From Thermodesulfobacteriota bacterium (lineage in GTDB: Bacteria > Desulfobacterota > Desulfobacteria > Desulfobacterales > JAUWMJ01), in assembly GCA_034189135.1 (NCBI GenBank), contig JAXHVO010000128.1:16251-80250 (forward strand): a stretch of 64,000 nt of DNA, written 5' to 3'. The notes under the pieces are model-generated. The model had not been told where the DNA came from. It was given only the letters and a program-made list of their open reading frames with translations, and ran no database searches. Positions 18,755-54,272 of the stretch are shown here, one piece after another. The translations under genes and the position numbers were made by a program. Position 1 is the stretch's first letter. The number at the start of each line of letters is the position of its first letter.

Positions 18755-18834
18755 TTTCACCACAGAGACAACAGAGTTAGCAGAGATTTTATAGTATTTA
18801 TTTTCTCCGTGTTCTCAGTGATCTCTGTGGTTAA
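18755..18834. repeat. Imperfect hairpin of the CACCAC(A/G)GAGA family between convergent genes
   Basis: The sequence is tttcaccacagagacaacagagttagcagaga...tctccgtgttctcagtgatctctgtggttaa. The basal stem is ccacagaga/tctctgtgg. It is related to 1295-1330/1711-1748 and 54192-54272. Confidence 0.75.
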
Positions 18835-18840
18835 TAAAGT

Positions 18841-19692
18841 TTATCCGTATTCGTAAAACCCTCGTTTTGTCTTTCTGCCAAGCCAGCCTACTTCCACATA
18901 TTTCCTTAAAAGAGGGCAGGGGCGGTATTTTGAATCATTGAACCCATCGTAGAGAGTTTCCATAATAGCCAGGCAGGTATCGAGCCCTATGAGATCGGCA
19001 AGGGCAAGGGGACCCATGGGATGATTCATCCCCAGTTTCATTACCGTGTCAATATCTTCCCGTGTTCCCACATTGTGATACAAACAGAAAACAGCCTCGT
19101 TAATCATGGGCATGAGAATCCGGTTGGCGATAAAACCCGGATAGTCGTTTGCCACTGCCGGTGTTTTGCCGAATTTTGCCGCAAGATCCCAGGTCGTCTT
19201 GAACGTCTCTTCGGAGGTGGCTATTCCCCGTATGACTTCCACCAGTTTCATCACCGGTACGGGATTCATAAAATGCATTCCGATAATTTTTTCCGGACGT
19301 TTGGTCTGGGCAGAAATTCGTCCTATGGGAATGGAAGATGTATTGGTAGAAAGAATTACATCAGGTGCGCATATTTCATCCAGGTCTCTGAAAATCTGAA
19401 ACTTCAACGATTCGTTTTCGGTAGCGGCTTCCACCACAAAATCCGCCGATGACATATCCTTTAAATTCACACTTGTTTTAATCCGTCCTAAAACGGCATC
19501 TTTTTCTTCCTTAGTTATCTTTCCCTTGTCGACACTGCGGGACAGAATTTTTGTAATCGTCCCGATGCCGCGCTCGACAAATTCTTCCTTGATATCGTTC
19601 ATAATCACATCAAGACCACTCATAGCTGCTACCTGAGCGATTCCATTTCCCATCTGACCGGCGCCGATCACACCAAATGTTTTAATTTCCAT
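18841..19692 (-). CDS. hbd: 3-hydroxybutyryl-CoA (3-hydroxyacyl-CoA) dehydrogenase
   Basis: It has a Rossmann motif (VIGAGQMGNGIAQV) and conserved blocks (NTSSIPI, HFMNPVPVMKLVEV, GFIANRIL). Confidence 0.9.
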   Translation of the reverse strand: MEIKTFGVIGAGQMGNGIAQVAAMSGLDVIMNDIKEEFVERGIGTITKILSRSVDKGKITKEEKDAVLGRIKTSVNLKDMSSADFVVEAATENESLKFQIFRDLDEICAPDVILSTNTSSIPIGRISAQTKRPEKIIGMHFMNPVPVMKLVEVIRGIATSEETFKTTWDLAAKFGKTPAVANDYPGFIANRILMPMINEAVFCLYHNVGTREDIDTVMKLGMNHPMGPLALADLIGLDTCLAIMETLYDGFNDSKYRPCPLLRKYVEVGWLGRKTKRGFYEYG

Positions 19693-19707
19693 TTTCTTCT
19701 CCTTTAT

Positions 19708-19794
19708 TCGAGTTTCGTGTTACGAGTTTCGGGTTGCGCGTTACGGATTGGCTTCCAGAAATAAATAACTCGTAACCCGAAACGTACAATCCGC
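19708..19794. repeat. Low-complexity inverted repeats built from ACGAGTT / AACCCGAAAC units
   Basis: ttacgagtt (19720-19728) pairs with aactcgtaa (19768-19776), a perfect 9 bp. gtttcgggtt pairs with aacccgaaac, a perfect 10 bp in an alternative register. Confidence 0.7.
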
Positions 19795-19812
19795 TACATG
19801 TAATTTATAGTT

Positions 19813-20041
19813 GTAACCGTTCACGGTTCAACGTTCAAAGGTTCAGGGTTGCCTTTCCACTCATTCCGGCGCTATACGTCGACTGCCGGTGTGTAAGAAC
19901 CGGAAAAGATGCCCCTCTTTATGATCTCTGATGCGGTATCGGTCTCTCGTCGACGCTTAAGTGCCCGGTGTACGTTCCACAGCGAAGTATGGGAACGAGG
20001 GCAACCTCTGAACCCTGAACCTCTGAACCCGTGAACGGTTA
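19813..20041. repeat. MITE-like or structured element: 41-43-nt imperfect terminal inverted repeats of GGTTCA units around a 145-bp core
   Basis: The left arm is gtaaccgttcacggttcaacgttcaaaggttcagggttgcc (19813-19853). The right arm is ggcaacctctgaaccctgaacctctgaacccgtgaacggttac (19999-20041). The outermost 14 nt are perfectly complementary. The core contains cgtcgac...gtcgacg and ccgg...ccgg stems. Confidence 0.7.
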
Positions 20042-20042
20042 C

Positions 20043-21218
20043 TTATCGTTTAACAACCATTGCCACCGCCTCTCCTCCGCCGAGACACAGAGAGGCGAGA
20101 CCTGTTTTTTTATTCTGCTTTATCATTTCATAGAGCAGGGTGACAAGTACGCGGCAACCGCTTGCCCCGATTGGATGACCCAAAGCCACACTTCCGCCGT
20201 TGACATTTACAATGGCAGGATTGAGTCCAAGTTCCTTCAATACCGCTACGGTTGATCCACTGAATGCTTCGTTAACCTCGTAAAGATCAACATCGTCAAT
20301 TTTAAGCCCCTCTTTATTCAGGCATTTGGGTATCGCCCAGATAGGAGCCACCAACACGTATTTCATATCAAGGCCGAAGGACGCCTGGGCGCCAATGGTT
20401 GCCATGATCTCACAGCCCAGTTCTTCAGCCTTTTGTTTTGACATGACGACGACTGCTGCCGCACCGTCACTGATGATGGAGGCATTTCCTGCAGTACCGA
20501 GCCCATCTTTTTTAAATGCACCCTTCATTTTGGATAAAATTTCATAACTGGTCTCCTGGGGGCATTCATCCTGGCTAAAAACAACCGGATCACCTTTTCT
20601 TTGAGGAATTTCAACAGGGACAATTTCATCTTTAAATCGGCCTGAACTTATTGATTCCATGGCACGTTTATACGACTGGGCCGCATATCGATCCTGATCT
20701 TCACGGCTGACATTATATTTTTCCGAACAAAGCTCATTGGAAATACCCATATGAAAATCGTTGACAATATCCCAGAGCCCATCGTGGATCATGCTGTCTA
20801 CAAACTGGCCGTGGCCCATACGATACCCGAAACGACCCTTTTCCAGATAGTATGGCGCCATGCTCATGTTTTCCATGCCCCCGGCGACCACAACATCCGC
20901 GTCGCCAAGCTGAATAGCCTGGGCGGCAAGCATGACGGTTTTCAGGGAAGACCCGCACACTTTGTTAACGGTAATGCATTCTGCCTCCCATGGCATACCG
21001 GCTTTTACAGCCGCCTGCTTTGCAGGATTTTGACCGTAACTCAGGGGCAGCACCTGTCCCATCATGACTTCATCCACAATTTCCTTTTTTATCTTTGCAC
21101 GCCGGATGGCCTCTTTTATCACCAGAGCACCCAAGTCGGTCGCACCGATTTTGCCCAATGACCCGTTAAAACTGCCCAAAGGCGTTCTGACCGCACTGAC
21201 GATTACTGCGTCTTTCAT
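20043..21218 (-). CDS. Acetyl-CoA acetyltransferase (thiolase II)
   Basis: It has VNKVCGSSLK (acyl-Cys), NVNGGSVALGHPIGASGCR and CLGGGEAVAM, and a typical thiolase length. Confidence 0.9.
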   Translation of the reverse strand: MKDAVIVSAVRTPLGSFNGSLGKIGATDLGALVIKEAIRRAKIKKEIVDEVMMGQVLPLSYGQNPAKQAAVKAGMPWEAECITVNKVCGSSLKTVMLAAQAIQLGDADVVVAGGMENMSMAPYYLEKGRFGYRMGHGQFVDSMIHDGLWDIVNDFHMGISNELCSEKYNVSREDQDRYAAQSYKRAMESISSGRFKDEIVPVEIPQRKGDPVVFSQDECPQETSYEILSKMKGAFKKDGLGTAGNASIISDGAAAVVVMSKQKAEELGCEIMATIGAQASFGLDMKYVLVAPIWAIPKCLNKEGLKIDDVDLYEVNEAFSGSTVAVLKELGLNPAIVNVNGGSVALGHPIGASGCRVLVTLLYEMIKQNKKTGLASLCLGGGEAVAMVVKR

Positions 21219-21374: not shown

Positions 21375-24300
21375 TTACATATTTCTTCTATACTGCCCAC
21401 CGACATCATACAGTGCATTGGTAATTTGGCCCATACTGCAGCAGCGAACGGTATCCATTAGTTCAGCGAATATATTCTCACCTCTGAGCGCCACCTGTTG
21501 AAGTCGCTTCAGTGCTTCCGGTGCTTGTTTTTCATGGCGTTTTTGAAATTGTGCCAGGCGTTTTAACTGGGACTCCTTTTCCTCTTCCGTTGCCCGGGCC
21601 AGTTCGAGACAGGAGGGTCCTTCAACCAGGTCACCGGCCTCATCGGCATCCGGATCCCGGAATGTATTGACACCGATAATGGGGTATTTCCCTTCATGTT
21701 TCAGCATTTCGTAATAAATCGATTCCTCCTGAATCTTGCTGCGCTGATACCCGGTTTCCATGGCTCCGAGAACACCACCGCGTTCGGTGATCTTGTCAAA
21801 TTCCATCAGTACGGCTTCTTCAACCAGATCGGTCAGCTCTTCAACAATAAAACTTCCCTGCAGCGTATTCTCATTTTTAGCCAGGCCCCACTCTCTGTTG
21901 ATAATCATTTGTATCGCCAGAGCGCGTCTCACTGATTCGCTGCTGGGTGTGGTAATGGCTTCGTCAAAGGCATTGGTGTGCAGGCTCTGGCAGTTGTCAT
22001 ATATGGCACACAGCGCCTGCAGAGTGGTGCGTATATCGTTGAATTGAATATCCTGGCTATGCAGGGAGCGGCCTGAGGTCTGAATATGATACTTGAGCAT
22101 CTGGCTGCGGGTGGAGGCTCCATATTTATCCCGCATGGCAACGGCCCAGATACGTCGGGCGACTCGCCCGATGACGGTATATTCCGGGTCCATGCCGTTG
22201 GAAAAGAAAAAAGAAAGATTGGGACAGAAACTGTCAAGGGGCATACCACGAGACAGGTAGTATTCCACATAGGTAAAACCGTTGGCCAGTGTAAAGGCAA
22301 GCTGGGAGATGGGGTTGGCACCGGCTTCTGCAATATGATAGCCTGATATGGAAACGGAGTAGAAGTTGCGGACTTTTTTATCTATAAAAAAGTCCTGAAT
22401 ATCTCCCATCATTTTAAGCGCAAAGTCAATGGAGAAAATGCAGGTGTTTTGGCCCTGATCCTCCTTTAGAATATCTGCCTGGATGGTACCGCGAACATTG
22501 GACAAGACCTCGTCACGAATCTTATCGTAAGTTTTTTTAGACGGCTTTTTCCCTTTCTCTTCGATATACTGGTCTACCTGCTGATCAATGGCTGTGTTTA
22601 GAAACATGGCCAGCATAATAGGGGCGGGTCCATTAATTGTCATGGAAACTGATGTATTGGGGGCGCACAGATCAAATCCGCTGTAAAGCACTTTAACATC
22701 ATCCAGTGTGCAAATGCTTACCCCGGAGTTGCCTATTTTACCATAGATATCCGGGCGTCTTTCAGGATCATATCCATAGAGGGTTACCGAATCAAAAGCG
22801 GTAGACAATCTTTTGGCTTCATAATCGGCAGATAACATTTTGAAACGACGGTTTGTTTTGATCGGATCGCCTTCTCCGGCAAACATGCGGGTGGGATCCT
22901 CCCCCACCCGTTTCAAAGGAAACACACCGGATGTGTAAGGAAAGTATCCGGGTAGATTCTCTCTTCTCATCCACCGGTAGATTTCTCCCGGATCTTTAAA
23001 CGAAGGAAGGGAAACCTTACGAATCTTTTGATGGGACAGTGACTCCGAGTATAGAGGAAGCCGGATTTCCCGTCCACGAACTTCATATACCAGTTCATCT
23101 TCATTGTACTTTTGTTTCAGGTCTTTCCATTGTTCAATCAAAAATGTGGTTTCTATATCCAGATTTTTTTCCGCTTGGTTTATTTCTTCTTTAAGTCGTA
23201 AAATAAGTGCTTTATCATCACCCTCAAGGGTTTCAACAGTCTCTTTTAAATGCCAGACCTGTCGAAGCGCATCGGCCTGTCTTTCCGTTTGTTTATGGTA
23301 GGATCTTACCGTATCGGATATTTCGGCAAGATAACGGGTACGTTCCGGAGGAATAATGATGGTTTTTGAACCGGATACTTTTTTTTCCGGTCTGGGCAGG
23401 GTAGACTCGAATCGGATCCCGGTTTTTTCCGCAATGGTATCCAAAACGGCATGATAAAAAGCGGTTACTCCGTCATCGTTAAATTTGGAGGCGATGGTTC
23501 CGAATACCGACATTTCCTCCGGTTGTTTGGCAAAATCGTTTAAGTTACGCTGCACCTGTTTACGCACATCCCGTACCGCATCCTCACCGCCCCTTTTTTC
23601 ATACTTATTGACCGCGATAATATCGGCAAAATCGAGCATGTCAATTTTTTCCAATTGTGAAGCGGCTCCAAACTCACTGGTCATCACATAAATAGAGAGA
23701 TCCACCAGGTCGATAATGTGAGAATCTCCCTGCCCGATTCCAGCTGTTTCAGCAATAACCAGGTCGTAGCCTGCCGCCTGGACGACTTTAATTGCATCAG
23801 GAAGGGCGTCGGGGATTTCGATATGAGAACGCCGGGTGGCAAGGCTTCGCATGTAAACTCTTGGGTTTCCAATGGCATTCATCCTGATTCTGTCACCCAG
23901 TAATGCTCCGCCTGTCTTACGCCTGGAAGGGTCGCTGCTTATTATCGCCAGATGAAGGTCTTTTTGATCATGAAGAATTCGCTGAATAAACTCGTCGGTT
24001 AAAGAAGATTTGCCGGAGCCGCCGGTACCGGTGATACCAATGACAGGGACTTTTCGATTGGCGATCATTTTTTCCAGTTCTGCCCGAAGATTTTTCAGCT
24101 GGTCGTTGTTTTTTATTTTTGTATTTTCCAACGAGGTGATTATATTGGCCATTAACAGTTTATTGTCCGGTGTCAGTTTGTCCAGATCAAAGCCATCCTC
24201 TTTGGCCCTGGGGAAATCCATCCACTCTACCATGTGGTTAATGATTCCCTGAAGTCCCCATTTAGCTCCATCTTCCGGGGAATAAATCTTGGAAACACCA

Positions 24301-24650
24301 TAGTCTTCGAGCTCCTTTATTTCCTCGGGAACAATCACCCCACCTCCACCACCGAACACCTTGATATGAGGAGCTTTTCTTTCTTTGAGAAGATCGACGA
24401 TATATTTAAAAAATTCCATATGGCCGCCCTGATAACTGGATACGGCTAAACCCTGGGCATCTTCCTCAACCGCGGCATCCACAATCTCCTGGACGGATCG
24501 GTTATGCCCCAGATGGATGACCTCTGTTCCGGTTGACTGCAAAATCCTGCGAAAAATATTGATGGATGCATCATGACCATCAAAAAGTGACGTTGCCGTG
24601 ATCACCCTTACATGATGTCTGGGTTTGTATATTTCAGTTTCAGGACTCAT
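21375..24650 (-). CDS. icmF: Fused isobutyryl-CoA mutase (B12-binding domain + MeaB-like GTPase + mutase catalytic domain)
   Basis: The 1091-aa protein has an N-terminal B12-binding region ([17 protein letters not shown]...), a central P-loop GTPase ([35 protein letters not shown]) and a C-terminal methylmalonyl-CoA-mutase-like barrel. The domain order and length match IcmF. Confidence 0.9.
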
Positions 24651-27759: not shown

Positions 27760-28656
27760 ATGAGAATTGTAACGCGACCTGATTTTGACGGCGTTGTCTG
27801 TGCGGCACTTCTGTATGAGGCAGAAAAAATTAATGAACCGGTGAAGTGGGTTGAACCCGGTGATATGCAGAAAGGTATGATTGAAATCAGACCGGGTGAT
27901 ATTATTGCAAACCTGCCTTATCACGAAAAATGCTCATTATGGTTTGATCATCATTATACCAATACAATCAGTAAATTATTTAACGGAGCATTTAAGATAG
28001 CCCCGTCAGCAGCAGGTATCATCTATGAATATTACCGAGATAAATTTACCCAGGATTATAGCGAACTTATTAAACAGACTGATAAAATCGATTCGGCGGA
28101 CTTATCTTTAGATGAGGTTCGGCATCCTGAAAATTACCCCTATTTACTGTTATCCATGACGATTTCAGGGCGAATTGAAACCGAGGAGGCTTACTGGAAC
28201 AGAGTGGTTCATTTGCTAAGAAGGTTTGAAATTGGGGCGATTATTAACGATCAAGAAGTCAGTGAGCGTTTCAATTTAGTTAAAAGTAATAACAAAAAAT
28301 ATAAAGCGCTGTTGAAAAAACACACCAAGATAAAGAACCATGTGTCGATTACTGATTTTCGTTCCTTAGACGAAACACCGGAGGGAAATCGTTTCCTGGC
28401 TTATTCGCTATTTCCCCAATCATCGGTAAATGTTAAAATTCGCTATGATGATAAAGAGAGGCAGATGATTGCGATAAGTGTCGGACACAGCATTTTCAAT
28501 AAAAACTGCCATGTAAATGTCGGTCTTTTACTTTCCAGTTTTGAAGGCGGCGGGCATCAAGGCGCTGCTGCCTGCCGTTTTCATGTCAGCAAGGCGGATG
28601 ATTATGTTGGGAAAATAATAGAAGTATTAGTAAAAAATGAGCCGATTGAAGATTGA
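27760..28656 (+). CDS. DHH family phosphoesterase
   Basis: It has RPDFDGVVCA (DxD), LWFDHHYTN (DHH) and EGGGHQGAAA (GGGH). The start is set at ATG 27760 (MRIVTRPDFDG). Confidence 0.65.
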   Translation: MRIVTRPDFDGVVCAALLYEAEKINEPVKWVEPGDMQKGMIEIRPGDIIANLPYHEKCSLWFDHHYTNTISKLFNGAFKIAPSAAGIIYEYYRDKFTQDYSELIKQTDKIDSADLSLDEVRHPENYPYLLLSMTISGRIETEEAYWNRVVHLLRRFEIGAIINDQEVSERFNLVKSNNKKYKALLKKHTKIKNHVSITDFRSLDETPEGNRFLAYSLFPQSSVNVKIRYDDKERQMIAISVGHSIFNKNCHVNVGLLLSSFEGGGHQGAAACRFHVSKADDYVGKIIEVLVKNEPIED

Positions 28657-28661
28657 TGGCG

Positions 28662-29648
28662 TCATTCCATGGCCCATCTAATCAGACAACTTCCCCAGGT
28701 ATAGCCTGCCCCAAATGCGGAAACGACAATCCAATCTCCTTTTGTTATCAGCCTTTCCTGGTAAGCTTCAGACATGGCAAGTGGTATGGTGGCGGCGGTG
28801 GTGTTCCCGTATTTATTTATATTAACCACCACGTGGTCCTCATCCAGCTCCATTTTTTTTGCCACTGCATCAATGATGCGAAAATTTGCCTGATGGGGAA
28901 TCAGAAACCGGATATCCTTTCCGGTTAGGTTATTTTTTTTCATAATCTGTATTGAGACGTCAGCCATATCCTTTACCGCACGTTTGAAGACCGCTTTTCC
29001 ATCCTGATAAACAAAATGTTTTCTCTTGCCGACGGTTTCCGGTGAAGCCGGTTCCAGGCTGCCCCCGGCACTTACATATAAAGATTTAAAACCGCTTCCG
29101 TCCATGTGAAGAATAGAGTCCTTTATGCCAAGATTGTCATTTGACGGCTCAATCAAGACGGCACCTGCGGCATCCCCAAATAAAACACAGGTGTTACGGT
29201 CCTCATAATCAATGATGGCACTCATCTTATCGGCGCCAATCACCATAACTTTTTGATGCTTTCCGTTTACGACAAATTGAGATGCGACGGATAAAGCGTA
29301 AACGAACCCGGTGCAACCCCCATTTAAATCGAACCCCCAGCAATTTGAGGCTTTCAGTTCTTTTTGGACTAGGGCAGCGGTTGCCGGAACCGGCATATCA
29401 GGTGATACAGTGGCCACGATGATTAAATCCAGCTCGTCCGCTGAAATATTTCTCTGTGAAAGGGCCATTTCAGCTGCTTTAACCGCCATGAAAGATGTCC
29501 CTTTACCTTTTCCCAGAATTCTTCTTTCTTTAATTCCGGTACGGGTGGTTATCCATTCATCATTGGTATCTACCATTTGTTCAAGGTCTTTATTGGTAAG
29601 TTTATTATCAGGAGCGAAATGCCCCACTGCGCTAATGATAGCTCGCAT
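28662..29648 (-). CDS. fabH: 3-oxoacyl-ACP synthase III (KAS III)
   Basis: It has GGCTGFVYAL (Cys), IPHQANFRI (His), KYGNTTAATIP (Asn) and a C-terminal GAGYTWGS. Confidence 0.85.
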   Translation of the reverse strand: MRAIISAVGHFAPDNKLTNKDLEQMVDTNDEWITTRTGIKERRILGKGKGTSFMAVKAAEMALSQRNISADELDLIIVATVSPDMPVPATAALVQKELKASNCWGFDLNGGCTGFVYALSVASQFVVNGKHQKVMVIGADKMSAIIDYEDRNTCVLFGDAAGAVLIEPSNDNLGIKDSILHMDGSGFKSLYVSAGGSLEPASPETVGKRKHFVYQDGKAVFKRAVKDMADVSIQIMKKNNLTGKDIRFLIPHQANFRIIDAVAKKMELDEDHVVVNINKYGNTTAATIPLAMSEAYQERLITKGDWIVVSAFGAGYTWGSCLIRWAME

Positions 29649-33405: not shown

Positions 33406-33547
33406 TTTTTTCCTCCTGCCAGCCATAGTATCTTTATTACACGAAAGTTTTTCGAATATGTCAAGTGCGTTATCGTCTTTGTTGACTTTTGTTACTGCTG
33501 AATTTTGCCTGAGTTGGCGACGTTAATATGCATTTTAATCATTGGGT

Positions 33548-33634
33548 CTAAAAAGAACGGTAAATGATAATTCCCAGTATAATTACTCCCAGCAACAGGG
33601 AAAATATCAACTGATCGGTATTAAACCTAGGCAA
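33548..33634 (-). CDS. Possible 28-aa single-TM micropeptide (TTG start)
   Basis: I translated it by hand: (M)PRFNTDQLIFSLLLGVIILGIIIYRSF. GAGGAG lies 9 nt upstream of the TTG. The only possible start is non-ATG. Confidence 0.2.
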   Translation of the reverse strand: MPRFNTDQLIFSLLLGVIILGIIIYRSF

Positions 33635-33756
33635 AATTCAGCACTCCTCAGCGGTGGATGTACCTTGGGATGTGATAAAAACTCGGTTAAATTTTATACG
33701 TTGCATTCAGATTTCCCCCGGGTCAGGAGCCTTGAAATGATAAGCGGATTGCCGGT

Positions 33757-37070: not shown

Positions 37071-37200
37071 CGGGTTCAAGGTTCAAGTTAATTTGTTTGC
37101 ATATCAAGTAAGTGTTTCGAGTTACGAGTTACGAGTTGCGAGTTGTCAATCGGAAACGATCCTTTTTTATACCCCTTAACCCGAAACGCGCAACCCGCAA
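37071..37200. repeat. Low-complexity repeat element: GGTTCAA units, four (A)CGAGTT(A/G) heptamers and a complementary AACCCG(A/C) arm
   Basis: It contains gggttcaaggttcaag (37071-37086). The left arm is gtttcgagttacgagttacgagttgcgagttg (37113-37144) and the right arm is cttaacccgaaacgcgcaacccgcaac (37174-37200). The unit types match those at 19708-20041. Confidence 0.75.
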
Positions 37201-37273
37201 CAATATCGCATGACAGAAAAAGAAACTGTTGCCAAATAAAACTGGTAAGTTGCGTTGTAGGTTTGTTAAGCGT

Positions 37274-50766: not shown

Positions 50767-52002
50767 ATGTTAAGTGAAAAAGAAAAGCTGGACACTTTGG
50801 CTAATTTAATGGTCGAACTCAACCAGGTCAGCGACCTGGATATTTTGATGGAACATATTTTAACACAGGCACGTCGATTTGTGAATGCGGATGCCGGTTC
50901 AATCTACATAGCCTATGATGACTCACTTCAGTTTACTTATACCCAGAACGATACACTGCAAAAACGTCTGGCTAAAGGTGAAAAACTGATTTATTCCACT
51001 TTTACTTTGCCGATAAATGAGCAAAGCATTGCCGGTTATGTGGCCGCCACAGGCAGGCCTCTGAATATAAAAGACGTTTACAGTCTGGAATCGGACTTGC
51101 CATATAATTTCAGCAGGGAGTTTGATGTTGCATCAAAATACAAGACACACTCGGTCCTTACCATTCCGCTAAAAGCGGCAAATGGAGACGTTCTGGGTGC
51201 GGCGCAGATTATTAATGCCATGGATGCGGATAACAAAGTGATATCATTTTCTGAAAAAGACGAAAAGATGATGATGCATTTTGCCGGTATTGCTTCGGTG
51301 GCATTGGAACGTGCCAAGATGACACGGGCAAATATACTTCGCATGATCAAGATGGCCGAGATGCGTGATCCCAAGGAGACGGGAGCCCATGTTAACCGTG
51401 TGGGCGCATTTGCAGTTGAAATATACGAACAGTGGGCTTTAAAGCGCAATCTTTCCAGGAAAGAAATAGATAAAAACCGTGATGTGCTTCGCATGGCTGC
51501 GATGCTCCATGATGTGGGTAAGGTGGCCATTTCAGACGTGATCCTGAAAAAACCGGGCAGGTTCAGCAAAGACGAATTCGAAATTATGAAGCAGCATACC
51601 GTTCTAGGGGCCAGGCTATTTTTAGACCGTCAGTCCGACTTTGATAAGGCGGCACTAATCGTTGCGCTGACTCACCATGAGCGCTGGGATGGAAAAGGTT
51701 ATCCCGGACCGGTTAATCTTTTGGACGGAAGAGCAATCACCGATTACACAAATTCAGAAGAGATGCCCGGCGGGATTAAAGAGGGGGAAATACCTCTTTT
51801 TGGCAGGATAGTGGCCATTGCCGATGTTTATGACGCTCTATCAACGGTGAGGACTTATAAAGAGGCATGGAATGAATCTGAAGTATTGTCGGTGATTGAA
51901 AAAGAGGCAGGATTCCATTTTGACCCTGAAATTGTTGAAGTTTTCTTTTCCAGTCTTGATATGATACGGGCGATTCAGGAAAGATATAAAGACAATCACT
52001 GA
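50767..52002 (+). CDS. GAF domain + HD-GYP domain protein (putative c-di-GMP phosphodiesterase)
   Basis: It has an N-terminal GAF-like region (ADAGSIYIAY...IAGYVAATGRPLNI) and an HD-GYP domain (MLHDVGKVAI, HHERWDGKGYPG). The start is set at ATG 50767. Confidence 0.85.
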   Translation: MLSEKEKLDTLANLMVELNQVSDLDILMEHILTQARRFVNADAGSIYIAYDDSLQFTYTQNDTLQKRLAKGEKLIYSTFTLPINEQSIAGYVAATGRPLNIKDVYSLESDLPYNFSREFDVASKYKTHSVLTIPLKAANGDVLGAAQIINAMDADNKVISFSEKDEKMMMHFAGIASVALERAKMTRANILRMIKMAEMRDPKETGAHVNRVGAFAVEIYEQWALKRNLSRKEIDKNRDVLRMAAMLHDVGKVAISDVILKKPGRFSKDEFEIMKQHTVLGARLFLDRQSDFDKAALIVALTHHERWDGKGYPGPVNLLDGRAITDYTNSEEMPGGIKEGEIPLFGRIVAIADVYDALSTVRTYKEAWNESEVLSVIEKEAGFHFDPEIVEVFFSSLDMIRAIQERYKDNH

Positions 52003-52128
52003 CGGTATCGTAAAAAGCCCAACTTCTGCGTTGTGCTGCATTTCGCAATCATTCAACCTACGATTAGTACGCCTCATGATTACAAAATTTGCACGCCTTG
52101 AATTTGAACTTTTTACGATACCGTCAGT
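51998..52128. repeat. 131-nt long hairpin with 20-bp perfect terminal arms, overlapping the HD-GYP stop codon
   Basis: actgacggtatcgtaaaaag (51998-52017) is the exact reverse complement of ctttttacgataccgtcagt (52109-52128). The interior continues as an imperfect stem (tgcatttcgcaatcat / atgattacaaaatttgca). Confidence 0.85.
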
Positions 52129-54191: not shown

Positions 54192-54272
54192 TTTTTACCA
54201 CGGATTTACACAGAAATTTCACAGCTAGTAAAAATTAAAATTCAGTGTCTCTCGGTAAAACTCCGTGGTAAA
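54192..54272. repeat. Imperfect hairpin of the (C/T)ACCACGGA family between convergent genes
   Basis: tttttaccacggatttacacagaaatttcacag pairs with ttcagtgtctctcggtaaaactccgtggtaaa. The basal stem tttaccacgga/tccgtggtaaa is 11 bp and perfect. Confidence 0.8.

Follow-up and report, generated by a model that had tools for sequence, protein, structure and literature searches.

A probable non-autonomous transposon (MITE) at the stop codon of a thiolase gene in a Desulfobacterales genome

What is the long inverted repeat that lies between a thiolase gene and an hbd gene in a 64,000-nucleotide stretch of DNA (hereafter the window, meaning the whole stretch that was analysed) from a Thermodesulfobacteriota bacterium, and how did it come to be there? 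An earlier note on this DNA, made from its letters, had offered three answers: a processing or stability element of the operon mRNA, an RNA with a regulatory role, or a mobile element of the non-autonomous kind, inserted between the genes. We argue here that the last of these is very probably correct, and that the element is a non-autonomous transposon (MITE) which landed on the stop codon of the thiolase gene.

Anatomy of the element and its insertion site

The thiolase and hbd genes are indeed co-directional and separated by a spacer of 350 nt, as the earlier note had described, and the spacer is occupied by an inverted-repeat element of 230 bp (window 19813-20042). The gene order thiolase-hbd is common to all relatives examined, and the thiolase protein matches one from a Thermodesulfobacteriota MAG at 100% identity and its Desulfonema magnum counterpart at 85%. 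The features of the locus are the following.

18841..19692, minus strand: hbd, 3-hydroxyacyl-CoA dehydrogenase (Pfam 3HCDH_N and 3HCDH), the downstream host gene
19805..19812, no strand assigned: target-site duplication, hbd-side copy, TTATAGTT on the plus strand and AACTATAA in mRNA sense
19813..19853, no strand assigned: hbd-side terminal inverted repeat, with the tip GTAACCGTTCACGG and then GTTCA units spaced by 7/7/8 nt
19854..19999, no strand assigned: core of 146 nt, non-repetitive, non-coding and of unique sequence
20000..20042, no strand assigned: thiolase-side terminal inverted repeat, with the tip CCGTGAACGGTTAC and GTTCA-type units (read on the minus strand) at 8/8/7/8-nt spacing
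20043..20050, no strand assigned: target-site duplication, thiolase-side copy, TTATCGTT on the plus strand and AACGATAA in mRNA sense
20043..21218, minus strand: thiolase, acetyl-CoA C-acetyltransferase (Pfam Thiolase_N and Thiolase_C), the upstream host gene

Immediately upstream of the thiolase gene is a gene for a fused protein of 1091 aa (window 21375-24650) with B12-binding, MeaB GTPase and mutase domains, resembling the acyl-CoA mutase IcmF, and beyond it a gene for a TetR regulator; the order of this neighbourhood is kept in the closer relatives examined (L001, L124, L127 and L256) and is not kept in Desulfonema magnum.

The two arms, of 41 and 43 nt, flank the core and face each other, and their outer 14 nt are 100% complementary (GTAACCGTTCACGG / CCGTGAACGGTTAC), so that the earlier description of facing GGTTCA-type arms with perfectly complementary ends agrees with the sequence. 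Complementarity is 84-94% in the inner parts of the arms, for which several registers of pairing are open, since they consist of tandem GTTCA units spaced 7-8 nt apart (as reported by TRF); over their whole length the arms are 81% complementary. The tip of the hbd-side arm equals the consensus tip of the family described below, GTAACCGTTCACGGGTTCARRG, and the thiolase-side arm shares 25 identical nt with an arm that belongs to a different element, found in a relative (L127:2826-2850). The same arm had been placed one nucleotide from the thiolase stop codon; the closeness is real, the gap is not, as 20042 is the last position of the arm and 20043 the first of the stop codon (TTA on the plus strand). 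Coding capacity is next to nil: the longest ORF that touches the element has 41 aa, and six-frame translation gives short frames only. The element is thus small, lacks the capacity to encode a transposase and ends in terminal inverted repeats, which are among the features by which MITEs are recognised.

As RNA, the element by itself folds at -101.3 kcal/mol (z = -8.0), and none of 200 shuffled sequences folds as well; the whole spacer on the mRNA strand has z = -7.5, and both strands fold far better than shuffles. The core alone (19851-20002) has z = -0.92, with 36 of 200 shuffles equally stable, and the excess fold stability of the element stems entirely from its arms. All nested core stems named in the earlier note are present in the minimum-free-energy fold.

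The 8-bp sequences that flank the element, TTATAGTT and TTATCGTT, are identical at seven of eight positions, and the thiolase ORF ends in the octamer on its side, so that its stop codon TAA is part of that octamer. The element inserted into the octamer AACGATAA, which holds this stop codon; the thiolase ORF has retained its stop codon because the target octamer was duplicated, and the second copy of the octamer, now mutated to AACTATAA, is found at the far end of the element. Since the duplication matches at 7/8 positions only and the arms are just 81% complementary, the copy in the window may be old and immobile.

A set of contigs encoding close homologues of the thiolase was used for comparison, and their thiolase-hbd spacers were aligned with that of the window. 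Their contents are listed here.

L124, thiolase identity 94%: spacer of 112 nt, containing only a small GTTNCGN-armed hairpin (orthologous to window 19707-19790)
L127-L130, thiolase identity 91%: spacer of 112 nt, with the same content as in L124
L125, L254 and L256, thiolase identity 96%, 94% and 93%: spacer with a different inverted-repeat element, TTACCACAGAG...CTCTGTGGTTAA
L131 (D. magnum), thiolase identity 85%: spacer of 574 nt, made up of other repeats

Alignment of the window with L124 and L127 reveals that exactly 238 nt are absent from these relatives and that both flanks are collinear. The relatives read ...GTGAAAAGATAA|ATTCCATG... at the empty site, where the window reads ...GTTAAACGATAA[GTAACC...GGTTAC AACTATAA]ATTACATG... 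at the filled one, and a single copy of the octamer, AAAGATAA, is found at the empty site in both L124 and L127. The indel of 238 nt therefore corresponds to the 230-bp element together with one copy of the octamer. A search for empty sites had been suggested in the earlier note as a check on a mobile origin, and the two relatives lacking exactly this stretch answer it in favour of mobility.

The same stop codon carries a different insertion in another relative. In L255 (GCA_030667855.1; thiolase identity 94%), a 96-bp member of the family lies at L255:3719-3814, flanked by the duplication GATAAAAT/GGTAAAAT and offset by 3 nt from the site used in the window. This insertion is independent of the one in the window, which means that the A+T-rich sequence round the thiolase stop codon was struck twice. 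One end of the 96-bp copy carries the 15-nt tip and the other end 12 nt of it, and GTTCA arrays are absent; the periodic units thus appear to be unnecessary for insertion. A further, degenerate member of the family is found at L127:2590-2850, between convergent genes for a FabH-like protein and a 298-aa protein, where the counterpart in the window (28656-28662) is a 5-nt spacer only; its arms are nearly identical to those of the element in the window, one of its tips has decayed and it has no clear flanking duplication.

A dispersed family and its target sites

Metagenome contigs from JGI were scanned with the arm-end pattern GAACN{2,4}TGAACN{0,1}CGTGAACGGTT, which has 20 specified bases and for which few chance matches were estimated. 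The pattern occurs in at least 120 metagenome contigs, and an inverted partner lies within 700 nt in 49 of the 127 cases among the matches listed. The family so defined is dispersed over sediment-metagenome contigs in unrelated genomic contexts and has the shared ends GTAACCGTTCAC...GTGAACGGTTAC, with tips of the form GTAA(C/G)CGTTCAC(A/G)GGTTCA... and the consensus given above for the hbd-side arm. The earlier note had also proposed that copies be counted, and at the level of the family the count favours mobility: at least 120 contigs share the arm end, and their flanks are unrelated.

For the study of flanking sequences, elements were defined from tip to tip by GTANNSGTT...AACSNNTAC, and the next octamers outward served as a control. 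Among the matches listed, 47 tip-to-tip elements had both flanks available, and the flanking octamers were identical at 8/8 positions in 19 of them and at 7/8 positions in 7. Mean octamer identity over the 47 elements was 5.55 positions, compared with 2.17 for the control, which never exceeded 5/8.

Family members measure 60 to 480 bp, most commonly 230-260 bp, and their GTTCA units are spaced by 7 nt in 85 instances and by 8 nt in 128. One core family (L152, L166, L167, L176, L156 and others) consists of copies that are 78-92% identical across arms and core; their similarity ends exactly at the GTAAC...GTTAC tips, and their flanks are unrelated. Altogether, the cores enclosed by the same tips belong to at least four unrelated families, and several cores are mosaics with nested small palindromes. 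Captured host DNA was considered as a source of the cores and rejected, as the cores match other MITE copies or nested small palindromes only and no genomic sequence outside MITEs.

Together these features mark a MITE family, to which the element in the window belongs as a typical-sized member, and it is the one copy of the family within the 64-kb window. A profile of the commonest core family gave no match to it and its core matches no other family member, so that the element taken as a whole is an orphan; what ties the window copy to the family is consequently limited to the arms of ~40 nt, the duplication and the empty site. In our reading of the sequence, these three are sufficient for the MITE call despite the orphan core.

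At the insertion sites of the family, the duplicated octamers are 77% A+T against a background of 53%, and a long reading frame spans the element in 2 of 48 cases, so that nearly all elements are intergenic. A position within 20 nt of the stop codon of an ORF of at least 120 aa was found for 19 of 49 elements (39%), compared with 4% of random positions, and in six cases an ORF ends in a TAA that lies within the tip GTAAC.

Contigs of the same strain in Logan (L001, L002 and L003; SRR24907504 and SRR24907505) end inside the MITE arm, 30 nt past the thiolase stop codon, as expected for repeated DNA. Such repeats fragment the short-read assemblies of this lineage. The thiolase contigs of many relatives are just 1-5 kb long.

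The locus and its surroundings contain other repeats. Two hairpins with arms of tandem GTTNCGN heptamers lie at window 19707-19783 and 37113-37201 (10 pattern matches, with 0.06 expected), and no target duplication was seen for either of them. The first of them is situated directly upstream of the hbd ribosome-binding site, in the same spacer as the MITE and separate from it, and is kept in the orthologous spacers of L124, L127 and L255. The second adjoins a solitary GGTTCAAGGTTCAAG at window 37073-37087, which consists of two GGTTCAA units, the motif of the MITE arms, and has no inverted partner. Another type of inverted repeat, with the ends TTACCACAGAG...CTCTGTGGTTAA, occurs at window 18756-18834 and 54194-54272, at L125:2030-2177 and in the thiolase-hbd spacers of L254 and L256; the copy at 18756-18834, between an ACT-domain gene and hbd, has the 8-bp flanks TAAAGTGT/TAAAGTTT, identical at 7/8 positions, and this type is probably another MITE family. 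In L125, L254 and L256 this type of element, instead of the GTTNCGN hairpin, takes up the thiolase-hbd spacer.

Just past the stop codon of a GAF-HD gene, at window 51998-52128, there is a 131-bp element with 29-nt arms that are 90% complementary (ACTGACGGTATCGTAAAAAG...), for which no duplication was seen; a similar motif, CGTAAAAAG, is nested within a MITE core in L187. An intergenic 20-nt inverted repeat, 90% complementary, encloses 108 nt at window 33496-33643. The 574-nt spacer of Desulfonema magnum (CP061800; L131:11177-11750) contains three palindromes of the CTACAAAATTTGTAG type (a possible operator), a REP-like GC hairpin and runs of TCAGNTT heptamers. Arrays of at least four GTTCANN heptamers are found in the genomes of at least 120 GTDB species (L004-L123), including Acidobacteriota, Planctomycetota, NC10, Bacteroidota and Cyanobacteria, where they frequently form inverted pairs, whose loops are short or long, and frequently adjoin arrays of other heptamers; they do not have the MITE tip.

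RNA readings and the means of mobilisation

Among the three readings offered in the earlier note, the non-autonomous mobile element is the one that the comparisons uphold, by way of the 8-bp duplication, the empty sites, the large dispersed family and the independent insertion at the same stop codon. The RNA readings are not supported: there is no Rfam match, the core folds like its shuffles and has no homologue in 1.7 Mb of related sequence or in other family members, and orthologous spacers do without the element. One such reading is that a cis-acting regulator or a small structured RNA (riboswitch-like, an sRNA gene or an attenuator) evolved in place, whose functional part would be the core and whose closing stem would be the arms. 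It would accommodate the nested stems of the core and the fact that, on either strand, the spacer as a whole is far more stable than its shuffles. However, the core taken alone is no more stable than its z of -0.92 implies, and searches with blastn and nhmmer gave no homologue of it in 1.7 Mb of related loci, in addition to which it is single-copy in the window, so that in the data searched it is without conservation or covariation. With Rfam, there were no matches in the whole window at the gathering threshold and none inside the element at E <= 10, the sole match for the spacer at this level being a chance one to bxd_5 (E = 7.7) that lies beyond the element; Rfam likewise found nothing, one tRNA apart, in 20 loci with members of the family. 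No sigma-70-like promoter or intrinsic-terminator-like site was found on either strand of the spacer, orthologous spacers lack the element, and the target duplication and the dispersed family speak of arrival by transposition. With a core that is unique, not unusually structured (z = -0.9) and unmatched in Rfam, the element gives no support to a dedicated RNA function, and an RNA evolved in place is effectively refuted on present data.

Co-transcription of thiolase and hbd is presumed, and neither promoter-like nor terminator-like sites occur in the spacer, so that the thiolase-hbd mRNA probably includes the element. There it would, with lower confidence, form a hairpin of about -100 kcal/mol that is tolerated by the operon; at most it would behave like other 3'-proximal stem-loops, which slow exonucleases or offer a site for a double-strand RNase, without having been built for that role. 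Once transcribed, the hairpin may have a secondary influence on how the mRNA decays or is processed, of the kind described for transcribed Correia elements and REP sequences. One may go further and suppose that the MITE was co-opted as a module of mRNA stability or processing, either by blocking 3'-5' exonucleases and so protecting the thiolase segment, or by offering a site of RNase III-type cleavage that uncouples the cistrons; this would be an addition to the MITE origin and not a replacement for it. Its probable place inside the transcript and its fold of -101 kcal/mol are in keeping with such a role, as is the enrichment of the family just after stop codons (39% vs 4%), and every orthologous thiolase-hbd spacer examined consists almost wholly of hairpin or inverted-repeat elements, of differing families. 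Yet close relatives manage without the element, which is thus unnecessary for the function of the operon; the enrichment after stop codons is equally well explained by a preference for A+T-rich targets combined with selection against intragenic insertion; and the core is neither conserved nor specially structured. We therefore regard co-option as unlikely. Also unlikely is the broader speculation that the spacer needs some long hairpin, for which mobile inverted-repeat elements are recruited interchangeably (those seen there are the MITE with GTAACCG tips, the hairpin with GTTNCGN arms and the TTACCACAGAG element), so that the MITE would have been domesticated as a module of RNA stability or processing, and, in its wider form, that the periodic arms are protein-binding arrays. 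If the wider form were true, the arms would bind a host or transposase protein, which would link the family to the heptamer-repeat hairpins of many phyla.

If the element is a transposon, what moved it? An intergenic inverted pair of repeats of ~40 nt is also what one would expect of a REP/REPIN pair mobilised by RAYT, an IS200/IS605-like tyrosine transposase, or of two facing STRR-type heptamer arrays that expanded independently; GTTCA heptamer arrays occur widely across many phyla and frequently form inverted pairs, and the window has further heptamer-armed hairpins. However, RAYT-type transposition is not known to duplicate its target, and the family has a clear duplication of 8 bp. Independent growth of two arrays inside an existing spacer is contradicted by the gain or loss of arms and core together as one unit of 238 nt. 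The heptamer arrays of other phyla, moreover, are without the tip GTAASCGTTCAC, and 0.96 Mb of such loci contained no tip-to-tip element; a generic heptamer-repeat phenomenon was rejected on the same grounds. Both versions are accordingly very improbable.

The ends of the MITE family point instead towards IS66. We know of no other IS family in the ISfinder family table that combines GTAA ends with a duplication of 8-9 bp. Members of the IS66 family have a terminal inverted repeat of 20-30 bp starting with GTAAGCG and generate 8-bp direct repeats (PMC11946415), and the inverted repeat of ISPsk01, an IS66 example, begins with GTAAGCGTCCGG... (PMC12888890). The tip in the window, GTAACCG, agrees with GTAAGCG at six of seven positions; the exact GTAAGCG occurs, at the end left unconstrained by the scan pattern, in 9 of the 47 elements, and the tip variants within the family are GTAACCG, GTAAGCG, GTAGGCG and GTAAGGG. 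The family also generates the 8-bp direct repeats that are characteristic of IS66. As tips of the form GTAA(G/C)CG together with an 8-bp duplication make up the published IS66 signature, mobilisation in trans by an IS66-family DDE transposase suggests itself, and we consider its chances evenly balanced. An IS66-family transposase encoded elsewhere in the genome would recognise the tips of ~15 nt and make an 8-bp staggered cut. With lower confidence, the 7/8-nt GTTCA units in the arms would be dispensable extensions; a copy may have from 0 to ~9 of them, a variation that points to growth through replication slippage.

The search for an autonomous partner covered several sources. In 1.7 Mb of loci there was no pair of GTAASCG tips 0.9-4 kb apart that enclosed a transposase, all pairs being combinations of MITE ends, and the same loci gave no IS66-type transposase with a motif regular expression or with a TnpB-like query, the latter being a weak test. 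The ORFs that adjoin unpaired arms are housekeeping genes by inspection of their sequences, with no transposase among them; the ten ORFs of the window that were scanned with Pfam include no transposase; and clustering of ORFs for multi-copy genes returned paralogous housekeeping families only. A scan of viral contigs gave no match, blastn against plasmids gave one chance match, and the first 50 kb of the E. coli plasmid pO157 contained no IS66 reference protein. No cognate full-length IS is thus at hand, and it is the end signature that carries the link to IS66.

Comparison with known systems

The MITE call has consequences for annotation: a candidate regulatory RNA is replaced by a mobile element with exact boundaries. 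It also defines a MITE family for uncultured relatives of the sulfate reducers (Desulfobacterales), which is abundant in sediment metagenomes and favours A+T-rich octamers at stop codons, and which accounts for intergenic breaks in the assemblies of these organisms. The odd features of the family, namely arms made of tandem units, identical tips round unrelated cores and one stop codon struck twice, leave the classification unaffected. Neither the family nor its tips and distribution were found in the searchable literature, where a search with the tip sequence returned unrelated primers only. The kind, a bacterial MITE, is well known and an ordinary form of selfish DNA.

One likeness is to insertion sequences of the IS66 family and their non-autonomous derivatives, with which the family shares terminal inverted repeats starting with GTAAGCG or GTAACCG and an 8-bp duplication (PMC11946415, PMC12888890). 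In contrast to these, the element in the window has no tnpA, tnpB or tnpC and measures 230 bp instead of 2-3 kb, and its arms are stretched to ~40 nt by tandem 7/8-nt GTTCA units. To our knowledge, no such units have been described for IS66.

Classical MITEs, such as the Correia/NEMIS elements of Neisseria, MITEPsy1 of Pseudomonas syringae (PMC3189936) and MITEAba12 (PMC6382973), are likewise small and non-coding, with terminal inverted repeats and target duplications, and they too occur as dispersed, intergenic copies with presence/absence polymorphism that are often co-transcribed and form a hairpin in the RNA. In a classical MITE family, however, the whole element is conserved, whereas in the present family tips and arms are common and the cores are unrelated. 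The length of the duplication and the tips differ as well; Correia elements, for example, duplicate TA.

REP and REPIN sequences (PMC3116915) are similar in being short and abundant extragenic palindromes that are often found just downstream of genes and are transcribed into stem-loops. The present family differs from them in its 8-bp duplications and in tips of the DDE type. RAYT tyrosine transposases, by which REPINs are moved, are not known to duplicate the target.

The 7-nt periodicity of the arms, their intergenic location, their variable number of units and their tendency to break assemblies recall the heptamer direct repeats known as STRR in cyanobacteria and the TAACTGA repeats of Beggiatoaceae (PMC4679880). 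Those are direct arrays without defined tips or duplications, whereas the present units sit in the inverted arms of a transposon, and the two may be unrelated.

More distant parallels come from eukaryotes. Foldback elements have long inverted arms made of short tandem repeats round heterogeneous middles, and the Ac/Ds elements generate 8-bp duplications and carry subterminal short repeats that bind the transposase. With both the likeness is an analogy only, as they belong to another domain of life and to other transposase families, and no homology is implied.
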